53,926 bases of DNA from Deltaproteobacteria bacterium (GCA_030262715.1 JAJSZR010000003.1:1-53926); one strand, 5' to 3'; shown: positions 4,596 to 52,688, counted from the first letter of the stretch. Numbers and translations are program-made. Notes: a model not told the origin generated them from the sequence alone.

Positions 4596-4610
4596 GGAGT
4601 GTTTTAAAAA

Positions 4611-4887
4611 AACCGTTCAGGGGTTCAAAGGGTCAAGTGACAAGAAAAAAATGAACATCGAACATCGAACGTCCAACATCGAATTTTGAATGGGAAAAGA
4701 TGAAGAAACAGACTTATGACCTGGAAGAAAGGCTACTTATTAAAAAATCTGAACTACTAAATGATATTCTAGAGGAAACAGAAATAGCCGTTGAATGTTC
4801 GGTATCGGATATTTGTTTTTCGTTCGATGTTGGACGTTCGATGTTCGATGTTCGACGTTCATCTTTTAATGTAACCTGTGAACGGTT
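4611..4887. mobile_element. intergenic inverted-repeat element (MITE/IVS-like) carrying a remnant of a four-helix-bundle (23S rRNA intervening-sequence protein family) gene
   Basis: Termini are AACCGTTCA (4611-4619) and its complement TGAACGGTT (4879-4887). The left arm 4651-4683 (ATGAACA TCGAACA TCGAACG TCCAACA TCGAA) is complementary to the right arm 4823-4862, which holds one extra TCGAACA heptamer. The interior encodes 'KKQTYDLEERLL...' (ORF 4700..4906), an N-terminal fragment typical of that family. Confidence 0.6.
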
Positions 4888-4902
4888 ACAAAAATATCAG
4901 AC

Positions 4903-49565: not shown

Positions 49566-50497
49566 AGACAGAGCGCCTTAAGAAACCCTTATTCCACCTG
49601 CCGGGCAACCTAGCCCGGATGCCTGCACTGGACAGCGAGCGTTGGATTGCCTTTGGGTTCATGGTGCCGCTTCTTCTGTTCGTGGTGTTGTTCATTCTAA
49701 TTCCGGTCCTGGGCACACTGGTGGACAGTTTTTCCCTGGACGTCACCTATCTGCCAAAGAGATTCCTCGGTCTGGAGAATTATGACTGGCTTCTTCGCGA
49801 TCCGGGATTTTGGCAGTCGGTTCGGTTCACATGTCTTTTCGTGGTGGTCTCCGTGCCGCTTGAGATCGCGCTGGGACTCATGATCGCACTTGTGCTCAAT
49901 GAACAGTTACCCATGAGGGGGCTTTTGCGGGCCTGCGTCCTCATACCGTGGGCCATCCCGGCGGCTGTTTCCGGCCGGGTCTTCGAGCTGATTTACAATT
50001 ACAGTTTCGGTGCGGCCAATTATCTGTTCCGCGTGCTGCATCTGACAGATGGGCCGGTCAACTGGCTAGGGAGCGAGGCCGGGGCCTTCCTTGCCCTGGT
50101 GGTGGCAGATAGCTGGAAGACCACGCCGTTTGCGGCCATTATCCTGCTGGCCGGTCTTTCTTCCATCCCGGACGATCTATACCGCCAGGCCAAGGTCGAC
50201 CGGGCCACCTTTATACAAAGGTTCACTAGAATCACTCTGCCCCTACTCAAACCTGTGCTGATCGTGACGTTACTTTTTCGCACCATAGATGCGCTTCGCG
50301 TATTTGACGTGATTTATGTCCTGACAGGCGGCGGTCCGGGTGGAACCACCACATCGCTTTCGCTCTTCGGGTATCATTATTTTTCAGCAGGCGATTTTGG
50401 CTACGGGTCTGCAGCGAGCGTGATATTGTTCCTCCTGGCCTTTGCCTTATCAATAATTTACATCAGGCTGGGGCATTTCGAGCAGGAAGTGGCATGA
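49562..50497 (+). CDS. sugar ABC transporter permease (MalF/ThuF-like)
   Basis: It has six predicted TM segments and the EAA loop 'IPDDLYRQAKVDRATFIQRFTRITLPLLKP'. It overlaps the neighbouring genes (ATGA). Confidence 0.9.
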   Translation: MKTERLKKPLFHLPGNLARMPALDSERWIAFGFMVPLLLFVVLFILIPVLGTLVDSFSLDVTYLPKRFLGLENYDWLLRDPGFWQSVRFTCLFVVVSVPLEIALGLMIALVLNEQLPMRGLLRACVLIPWAIPAAVSGRVFELIYNYSFGAANYLFRVLHLTDGPVNWLGSEAGAFLALVVADSWKTTPFAAIILLAGLSSIPDDLYRQAKVDRATFIQRFTRITLPLLKPVLIVTLLFRTIDALRVFDVIYVLTGGGPGGTTTSLSLFGYHYFSAGDFGYGSAASVILFLLAFALSIIYIRLGHFEQEVA

Positions 50498-51324
50498 AGG
50501 AAGATCGGTTCAAAAAGATATTACTGGCACTCGGCGCCCTGCTGACGGTTCTCTTTTGTCTGTCACCGTTCTTTTACATGGCGCTTACAGGCCTGAGCCT
50601 GCATCCGGACTTTCTTTTGCCTGACAGGCCCTTGTGTATCACCCTTTCACATTTTCACACAGTGGTGGCCTCGGATTCAGTGCATTTTTTAGCGTTCCTG
50701 CGAAACAGTCTGATCATTTCAACAGCAAGCGCGGTCATTTGCGTGTTCATCGCCTCCCTGGCAGCTTACGCCATAACCCGCCTTCCTGTTCCCGGAAAGG
50801 TATTCCTGATGTTCCTGATACTGGCTGTATCCATGTTCCCGCCGGTGAGTCTGGTCAGTTATCTCTTCAAGCTCATGTCTGCGCTCGGCTGGATTAACAC
50901 TTATCAGGGCCTGATCTTCCCTTATGTGGCCTGGACATTGCCCCTTTCGCTGTGGATTCTTATGAGCTATTTTGCACAGGTCCCGAAGGATCTGGACAGG
51001 GCCGGGCTTATCGACGGTTGCTCAAGGCTGCAGATCCTGGTCAAGATCATCTTTCCGGTTGCAGCTCCGGGTATTTTTTCCACAATGCTTTTGGCATTCA
51101 TTTTTGCGTTTAATGAGTTTCTATTTGCCCTGATGCTTACTACGGATCATTCCGCAAGGACGGTTCCGGTGGGTATCGCACTGTTCGAGGGACTGTACGG
51201 TCAGATCCCCTGGGGCGAAATCATGGCAGCAGCAACAATCACCACCATTCCAGTGGTGATCCTGACCCTGATTTTTCAACGCCGCATCATTCAGGGTCTG
51301 ACACGAGGGGCGGTGAAGGGATGA
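50494..51324 (+). CDS. sugar ABC transporter permease (MalG/ThuG-like)
   Basis: The EAA loop is 'VPKDLDRAGLIDGCSRLQILVKIIFPVAAPG'. Confidence 0.9.
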   Translation: MKEDRFKKILLALGALLTVLFCLSPFFYMALTGLSLHPDFLLPDRPLCITLSHFHTVVASDSVHFLAFLRNSLIISTASAVICVFIASLAAYAITRLPVPGKVFLMFLILAVSMFPPVSLVSYLFKLMSALGWINTYQGLIFPYVAWTLPLSLWILMSYFAQVPKDLDRAGLIDGCSRLQILVKIIFPVAAPGIFSTMLLAFIFAFNEFLFALMLTTDHSARTVPVGIALFEGLYGQIPWGEIMAAATITTIPVVILTLIFQRRIIQGLTRGAVKG

Positions 51325-51330
51325 GTAGAG

Positions 51331-51572
51331 CCGTTCACGGCTTGAAACTTGAAATTGGAAAGTAGAAATTTGGGAGAAATGAAACGAGTTTACGAGTTGG
51401 ATGTTTACAAACTGGCAGAAGAGTTATCGGATATGGTCTGGCACGACTTTGATAAGTGGAACAAAAAGGTTCAGAATACCGTGGGCTATCAGATAATACG
51501 ATCATCAACAGTACAAAAGCATGAAGGCCAAATTTCCAATTTCTATTTTCTAATTTCAACGTTCCGTGAACG
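51331..51572. mobile_element. intergenic inverted-repeat element (MITE/IVS-like) carrying a truncated four-helix-bundle (23S rRNA IVS protein family) gene
   Basis: Termini are CCGTTCACGG (51331-51340) and CCGTGAACG (51564-51572). The 7-bp-periodic left arm is CTTGAAA CTTGAAA TTGGAAA GTAGAAA TTTGG (51341-51373). It pairs imperfectly with the right arm 51528-51559: 24 of 32 positions in the ungapped register by hand count. The interior encodes 'MKRVYELDVYKLAEELSDMVWHDFDKWNKKVQNTVGYQIIRSS', about 45 aa of the family N-terminus, then breaks off. Confidence 0.65.
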
Positions 51573-51581
51573 TTTACAGGG

Positions 51582-52688
<1,107 letters not shown>

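Follow-up and report, generated by a model that had tools for sequence, protein, structure and literature searches.

The window analysed here is the whole stretch JAJSZR010000003.1:1-53926, of 53,926 nucleotides, from the genome of Deltaproteobacteria bacterium GCA_030262715.1 (G000), whose assembly comprises 2.62 Mb in 220 contigs with 46.7% GC. Between the second permease gene and the ATPase gene of an ABC transporter the window holds an insert of 253 bp at positions 51325-51577. The initial annotation had placed its limits at 51331-51572; the element is longer than that at both ends and is bordered on each side by the same 8 bp, AGGGATGA. The parts of the insert and of its surroundings, named with reference to a full-length master copy elsewhere in the genome (family F2, below), are as follows:

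50494-51324: second ABC permease gene (PF00528)
51317-51324 (+): upstream target-site duplication AGGGATGA, an 8-bp direct repeat that includes the permease stop TGA (51322-51324)
51325-51340 (+): left terminal inverted repeat GTAGAGCCGTTCACGG, placed by alignment with the master and sister copies
51341-51375 (+): left arm of about 5 heptamers, CTTGAAA CTTGAAA TTGGAAA GTAGAAA TTTGGGA
51379-51506 (+): remnant of a PF05635 four-helix-bundle gene, first ~43 codons, MKRVYELDVYKLAEELSDMVWHDFDKWNKKVQNTVGYQIIRSS
51506-51507: internal deletion junction, where master positions about 181-376 (196 nt) are missing
51507-51527 (+): final codons and stop of the master ORF (AACAGTACAAAAGCATGA...), out of frame in the window copy
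51528-51563 (+): right arm of inverted heptamers, CCAAATT TCCAATT TCTATTT TCTAATT TCAACGTT
51564-51577 (+): right terminal inverted repeat CCGTGAACGTTTAC (reverse complement GTAAACGTTCACGG; family consensus GTAAGCGTTCACGG)
51578-51585 (+): downstream target-site duplication AGGGATGA, which includes the ATPase ATG (51582-84)
51582-52688: ATPase gene (PF00005)

The termini described initially (CCGTTCAC) are present as an exact 9-bp inverted repeat, CGTTCACGG at 51332-51340 and CCGTGAACG at 51564-51572, and the inverted repeats reach outward past this core to GTAG.../...TTAC. The left terminal inverted repeat carries a 2-nt AG insertion relative to the F2 consensus GTAGCCGTTCACGG and resembles the ends of IS66-family insertion sequences (IS), for example GTAACCGTTCAC. 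The arms were said to be 7-bp-periodic and to pair each with its own partner, and indeed positions 51342-51373 and 51528-51559 are 81% complementary over 32 nt in 7-nt units, while the fold of the insert is better than that of 200 out of 200 shuffled sequences (z = -3.5 as RNA and z = -4.0 as DNA). A ribosome-binding-site-like GGGAG lies 3' of the left arm and precedes the ATG at 51379. The truncated four-helix-bundle ORF that had been recognised behind it also proved real: 51379-51506 can be aligned with ~43 codons at the start of the intact PF05635 gene on contig C73, and the gene remnant has 97% DNA identity with positions 3-180 of this F2 master. Since the truncated peptides match no Pfam or NCBIfam model when taken alone, their PF05635 homology was shown via the full-length copies. 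No Rfam family matched the element at E <= 1, and a scan of the element for intrinsic terminators found none. Elsewhere in the window, a c-di-GMP-I-GGC riboswitch aptamer (RF03167; 16343-16433, +; 68.4 bits, E = 3.9e-14) is the sole Rfam match above the gathering score.

The flanks of the insert, joined through one copy of AGGGATGA, were searched against the 17 other genomes of the genus. In one of these (G008, contig C106) a continuous match to the joined flanks extends over 598 nt with 94% identity; the site reads ...GGTAAAGGGATGAGACTTAC... with one AGGGATGA only, and the permease stop and the ATPase start overlap there in an uninterrupted ATGA. Given this single, uninterrupted copy, the window element is a true insertion, and it duplicated 8 bp of its target. 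The upstream duplicate provides the permease stop and the downstream duplicate the ATPase start, so that both ABC-transporter genes would have stayed intact after the insertion. The ATPase ATG stands 5 nt past the element, inside the downstream duplicate, and the spacing of 9-15 nt first given for the next start codon is wrong for this copy. What the operon appears to have lost is the ATGA translational coupling, replaced by a 261-bp spacer whose predicted RNA fold is a hairpin of about -69 kcal/mol. A remnant ORF of 68 codons (51379-51585), its frame shifted by the 196-nt deletion, runs through the right arm, and its stop TGA (51583-85) overlaps the ATPase ATG in an ATGA overlap such as the permease had before the insertion. 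If translated, this ORF could restore coupling to the ATPase gene; equally, the arrangement may be due to chance.

Full-length and deleted members of the F2 and F1 families

Six clear PF05635 matches were found in G000. The F2 master, on contig C73, is the sole full-length F2 copy in this genome: it measures 459 bp, shares its ends and TTGAAA-type arms with the window copy and carries an intact gene for a protein of 117 aa that matches PF05635 at E = 5.2e-23. The cassette is built as inverted repeat, heptamer array, PF05635 gene, inverted heptamer array and inverted repeat, with consensus ends GTAGCCGTTCACGG / GTAAGCGTTCACGG. A transposase gene is present in neither form, the 253-bp window copy having only its 43-codon remnant and the 459-bp master only its PF05635 ORF. 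BLAST searches with the master gave about 45 further F2 copies in G000, all of them internally deleted, among which the following classes recur:

Deletion class with master 1-48 + 127-183 + 389-459: about 10 loci
Deletion class with master 1-59 + 395-459: about 7 loci
Deletion class with master 1-180 + 377-459: the window copy, C76:4355-4606 and C10:7495-7743

The breakpoint of the last class (GATCATC/AACAGTAC) is identical at its three loci and lies between two TCATC microhomologies of the master. Sharing of one breakpoint by the window copy and two other loci implies that deleted copies went on moving in the manner of MITEs.

Target-site duplications, proposed at the outset as a check on the element, were found and are 8 bp long. 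We compared the flanking 8-mers of the 18 F2 copies in G000 in which both ends are recognisable. At least 6 of 8 positions matched in 10 of the 18 as anchored by script, and 3 more copies, that of the window included, reached this level after re-anchoring by 1-2 nt by eye (13/18), against 1/72 in offset controls; a clear duplication is absent in 5 of the 18. Full-length F2 copies in other species occupy other sites and are likewise flanked by duplications (AATGTCAG, 8/8; GCAAACTT and ACCTTCAT, 7/8). Ten F2 sites of G000 were also checked, as reconstructed empty sites, against the 17 congeners, and presence and absence proved polymorphic, many sites being occupied in only some of the species. 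At the C130 site, for example, 14 genomes are contiguous and two carry an insert, and the site of the master on C73 is contiguous in five. The family as a whole is present in all 17 congeners (12-56 matches each) and in 0 of 13 genomes outside the genus. Its protein is under purifying selection between species, with pN/pS of 0.13-0.18, and is intact in 4 of 5 full-length copies. Where both neighbouring genes point the same way, as judged from rough stop-to-stop ORF calls, about 20 F2 copies are co-directional with them and 3 are opposite, a bias suggestive of post-insertion selection.

A second family, F1, includes copy 1 of the initial annotation (window 4609-4889, +), which has undergone two internal deletions and has a related right end CCTGTGAACGGTTAC and a degenerate left end AAAACCGTTCAGGGG. 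F1 has TCGAACA arms, a master on C202 and about 40 loci in G000; its protein shares only 24% identity with that of F2, and its ends are of the same type. The view that copies 1 and 2 are elements of a single kind, which have their termini in common and self-complementary heptamer arms specific to each family, is borne out, as is the observation that the arms of copy 1 (TCGAACA) are unrelated to those of copy 2 (TTGAAA). The possible master copies envisaged in the initial annotation also exist, with intact genes and the same flanks, on C73 for copy 2 and on C202 for copy 1. The copy-1 site is empty in two congeners (G007 and G002) and holds a 34-bp F1 remnant in a third (G015, L137). Its target duplication is ambiguous because the site lies in an A-run. 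In G014 (C73, L139) the site orthologous to window ~4609 holds a different remnant, of ~50 bp, with CAGGATN heptamers and a GTAAC end. It appears that the copy-1 site was hit more than once.

Some further elements of G000 depart from this plan. Many F1 copies have a further outer inverted repeat, ATAAGCGCTAAGTT / AACTTAGCGCTTAT (C202:1032-1630, C101, C108, C173 and C133:1279-1351), which in C173 and C108 is accompanied by flanking direct repeats of 9-11 bp, offset by 2-3 nt, while at C133:1279-1351 two such outer ends stand almost alone. These outer repeats may represent a nested or second element type with a mobiliser of its own. A PF05635 cassette at C35:6271-6988 has an arm unit of 9 nt (TTGGGTTGA / TTGGGTTTA) rather than 7 nt and an in-frame TAG in its gene, and recognisable IS66-type ends are absent from it.

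A co-resident IS66-family insertion sequence with the same ends

As summarised in PMC11946415, citing Ross et al. 2021, the inverted repeats of the IS66 family typically start with GTAAGCG and the direct repeats are of 8 bp. A profile search of G000 with the IS66 transposase domain (PF03050) gave no match, the interior of the IS being missing from the assembly; PF03050 matches are present in 9 of the 18 genomes of the genus. In G011, G010 and G002 the IS encodes a single protein of 516 aa and both of its ends read GTAACCGTTCACTCCCCCC, and the G011 protein matches PF03050 (DDE_Tnp_IS66) at E = 1.2e-31. In G000 itself 7 contigs end about 109 bp into the IRL (GTAATCATTCACTCCCCCCC...), which leads into the transposase start LYAICVMDHLTKD, and 7 contigs end about 109 bp into the IRR (GTAACCGTTCACTCCCCCCC...), which holds the last 26 transposase codons. 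The genome has at least 7 copies of the IS, collapsed at contig ends. Its family assignment in G000 rests on the IRR-encoded C-terminus, in which 29 of 30 residues are identical to the G011 protein, on the matching N-terminus and on the copies of the congeners. Four IRL/IRR pairs have perfect 8-bp duplications in G000 (TGTCTTTG, GTTGTTGT, CCGGGTCG and GTAGTGTT, read from reverse-complementary flanks).

For the assembly, this one IS66-family IS, with its interior absent from the bin, accounts for at least 14 breaks in G000. The contig ends concerned are those of C8, C26, C53, C83, C93, C184 and C195 and of C14, C34, C71, C146, C163, C179 and C206, and the 8-bp duplications make it possible to join contigs through the IS in the pairs C71 with C8, C206 with C49, C146 with C53 and C179 with C71.

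Over their first 12 nt the IS inverted repeats agree fully with the F1 consensus ends GTAACCGTTCACAGG, and each F2 end departs from them at one of these 12 positions; sharing goes no further than the first ~12-14 nt. The termini, initially described as conserved together with the hairpin, do not belong to a conserved hairpin and are the inverted repeats of the co-resident, multi-copy IS. Two other elements were considered as sources of the ends and rejected: an IS66-like element of G002 (C404), whose own ends GTAAGCACGATG... do not match, and an element of G011 (L045), whose ends GTATCCTATTCAAA and duplication GTCAAATA do not match either. The latter element (L045:2032-4098 on G011:C53; also L046 and L047) has a single ORF of 555 aa that matches PF03050 weakly (E about 1e-6), and with its GTATCCTATTCAAA ends and 8-bp duplication GTCAAATA it is present in three identical copies in G011.

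The same IS66-type ends also delimit a third type of MITE, of ~148 bp (L050:769-916, G011:C70), which is without heptamers or gene remnant; at least 18 ends of this type (GTAxxCGTTCAxAGGGCACCGCATCT) were found in G000. With ~45 F2 and ~40 F1 copies and these ends, elements of 100-460 bp total roughly 100 in the genome. The degenerate 12-mer GTA[AG][CG]CGTTCA[CGT] occurs 88 times in G000 against about 4 expected by our own estimate.

We consider it very likely that the insert at 51325-51577 is a non-autonomous DNA transposon (MITE), namely an internally deleted form of the 459-bp F2 cassette, moved by an IS66-family transposase acting in trans. A DDE transposase of this family, supplied in trans, would have recognised ends of the form GTA(A/G)(G/C)CGTTCAC and, by a staggered cut, duplicated 8 bp of its target, here AGGGATGA, where the permease stop and the ATPase start overlap. 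The argument for mobilisation in trans comes from the shared ends and the length of the duplication, and the simplest reading of the sequences would be that one IS66-family transposase mobilises F1, F2 and the 148-bp MITE alike. Breakpoints common to separate loci, together with sites that vary between empty and filled, lend this indirect support. The full-length F2 element fits the definition of an IS66-family mobile insertion cassette. The DDE mechanism leaves the orientation bias (~20 against 3) unexplained. The window copy itself is ordinary, and its interest lies in the family that it reveals.

Arm complementarity and alternative explanations

When the left arm is compared with the reverse complement of the right arm, identity peaks 7 nt apart are seen in both the window copy and the master. 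Successive registers of the window copy have identities of 0.55, 0.67, 0.67, 0.54 and 0.50, and the register adopted in the predicted fold does not surpass the adjacent one. Mismatches of the G.U and A.C types are balanced, at 14:23 for F2 and 49:43 for a related subfamily, of which 39 loci were counted, and mini-hairpins of the sense and antisense strands are equally stable (mean -37.7 vs -36.9 kcal/mol). The covariation between arms that had been suggested as a check was not seen, in either a position-specific or an RNA-strand-specific form, and the tests of G.U/A.C asymmetry, of sense and antisense energy and of register gave no evidence of selection on RNA structure. From the equal registers and the balanced mismatches we conclude that the complementarity of the arms is that of one motif arrayed in inverted orientation. 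Of the two causes originally put forward for the arms, selection on structure is thus not upheld: pairing occurs in registers 7 nt apart and the mismatches carry no bias. The other, slippage, stands in part. Heptamer units have been gained, lost and homogenised between sister copies, which fits what slippage is expected to produce; the arms are, however, inherited from the master of each family and not made anew at each propagation, since about 45 F2 copies share the TTGAAA arms.

These data bear on the alternative, roughly that of the initial annotation, that the insert is an RNA element akin to the intervening sequences (IVS) of 23S rRNA, in which a transcript hairpin would be selected as an RNase III substrate, spread would be based on RNA or on recombination, and the termini would be the base of the stem. 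Such an element would be expected to form a strong hairpin, as this one does (z = -3.5), and several other features are in keeping with it, namely that copies are mostly co-directional with their host operons, that the element is devoid of an intrinsic terminator and that its gene family is found in RNase III-excised 23S rRNA intervening sequences (PMC4990558). It would nevertheless leave the termini unaccounted for, because they are IS inverted repeats that also flank the heptamer-free 148-bp MITE, and the duplications, whose fixed length of 8 bp marks a DDE cut. Pairing of the arms in several registers, the balance of G.U and A.C mismatches, which denotes the lack of a strand-specific RNA signal, and the lack of an Rfam match for the element also speak against it, and we regard this explanation as improbable. 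RNA processing may be a secondary effect of the insert.

Movement of a REP/REPIN-like element by a Y1 (HUH) transposase of the RAYT or IS200-IS605 type, acting on single-stranded DNA hairpins, would suit elements that are intergenic and form hairpins, and four PF01797 (Y1_Tnp) matches occur in G000, one of them (C103:6691-7014) adjoining an F1 copy. Y1 transposases make no target duplication, however, whereas 8-bp duplications are the rule in F2 and in the IS. The element ends match a DDE IS while the Y1_Tnp genes share no ends with F2, and no conserved tetranucleotide target was seen, all of which makes this mode of transposition very unlikely. As to the locus itself (C103:6279-7014), the end of the Y1_Tnp gene lies within about 10 nt of the F1 copy, an adjacency that is probably due to chance.

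Retro-mobility, whereby an Avd-like four-helix-bundle protein and a reverse transcriptase would copy the transcript into new sites, can draw on the inclusion in PF05635 of Avd, the accessory protein of diversity-generating retroelements (DGR), and on the co-direction of copies with transcription, but it is extremely unlikely, as no PF00078 reverse transcriptase was found in the incomplete assembly of G000, copies without the gene still spread, and terminal inverted repeats with a fixed 8-bp duplication are unexpected from target-primed reverse transcription.

The PF05635 protein and comparison with known systems

Because F1 and F2 share transposase ends and differ in their units, the units track the passenger protein and not the transposase, and heptamer arrays that differ between families with the same ends are not transposase sites. 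We take them to be putative binding sites of the cassette's own protein.

To see the arrays beyond the genus, we took the C44-type protein of G000 as query and gathered 80 loci (L056-L135) encoding proteins 67-97% identical to it, from Thermodesulfobacteriota, Nitrospirota, Verrucomicrobiota, Planctomycetota, Acidobacteriota, Chloroflexota, Ignavibacteria, Spirochaetia and others. In 41 of 75 C44-type loci the gene has two or more CTGAAGG-like units on each side, an arrangement present in 0 of 67 control windows, and the heptamer motif looks constrained in this subfamily. Synonymous sites of the gene are saturated (median pS 0.80, pN 0.17). The comparison indicates strong purifying selection on a protein that occurs in at least 8 phyla, and the cassette has probably undergone frequent horizontal transfer. 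A subset of the loci are elements of 446-483 bp with GTAACTACTCAGGT ends on both sides. Their 8-bp duplications match at 8/8 positions in L058 and L112 (Desulfobacterales) and in L127 (Ignavibacteria), at 7/8 in L071 and at 6/8 in L078; in most other C44-type loci one or both ends have been lost. These ends and duplications mean that the link between PF05635 and IS66-type ends is not peculiar to this genus.

To our knowledge PF05635 proteins, which are very common and go by the names '23S rRNA IVS protein', 'four helix bundle protein' or Avd-like, have no known function outside DGRs. It is conceivable, though we would put it forward as a tentative idea only, that the PF05635 protein binds its own heptamers in a sequence-specific manner, either aiding parasitism of IS66 or controlling expression, and that the ORF-bearing IVS of 23S rRNA are such cassettes that landed in rDNA. 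As a helper, the protein bound to both arms could, for example, pair the ends of the element, as TNPA does in En/Spm. Some observations lean towards this idea: the heptamer motif goes with the protein subfamily and not with the inverted repeat that F1 and F2 have in common, CTGAAGG units are retained on either side of C44-type genes whose synonymous sites are saturated, and the F2 protein is under purifying selection.

The case matters for several reasons. It may show how the puzzling PF05635 gene family spreads, and for annotation it accounts for repeats of 100-460 bp that split operons at stop/start junctions. One lineage holds the IS, a full-length cassette with the same ends, a deletion series that moves, 8-bp duplications and empty sites in sister species. 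This is an unusually complete case, in which the movement of the cassette and the role of the heptamers become directly addressable questions. The question of the origin of rRNA intervening sequences dates from 1990, and their description as a 'remnant of transposition' in Warrier et al. 2016 is a hypothesis only.

Among known systems, the arms recall by analogy the foldback transposons (Drosophila FB), in which long inverted arms consist of short tandem sub-repeats that vary in number. In En/Spm the subterminal repeats of both arms are bound by TNPA, which the element itself encodes, and cutting is left to another protein. In contrast to both, with which it has no homology, the present element is bacterial, its arms are only about 35 nt long, and heptamer binding by the four-helix-bundle protein is our inference. 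With Avd of the diversity-generating retroelements the F2 protein shares the Pfam family and the form of a small four-helix bundle, the closest solved structure by sequence being XCC0516 (2GSC; E = 2.6e-4). The F2 cassette differs from a DGR in that it is a single ORF and has neither a reverse transcriptase nor a template or variable repeat near it.

The ORF-bearing IVS of 23S rRNA, such as the S23p IVS of Coxiella burnetii and those of Leptospira (PMC4990558), are also comparable. In both, a long terminal stem encloses a PF05635 / S23p gene in its loop, the ORF is preceded by tandem heptamers of variable copy number, and it readily suffers large internal deletions. Unlike the IVS, which sit in helix 25 or 45 of 23S rRNA, the F2 copy lies between protein-coding genes, and its inverted repeats, its target duplication and a candidate for its transposase are identified; located in an mRNA operon, the window element is not a 23S rRNA IVS.

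The closest counterparts are the MITEs and MICs derived from insertion sequences of the IS66 family (single-ORF type). Like these, the present elements have ends that match those of a co-resident IS exactly or almost exactly, an 8-bp duplication and no internal transposase, and they occur in dozens of copies with a deletion series and with empty and filled sites. A full-text literature search returned no paper linking IS66 with PF05635. The full-length F2 element is distinguished from IS66-derived MITEs and MICs by its PF05635 passenger, which is under purifying selection, and by the family-specific inverted heptamer arrays that it carries between the inverted repeats and the gene.
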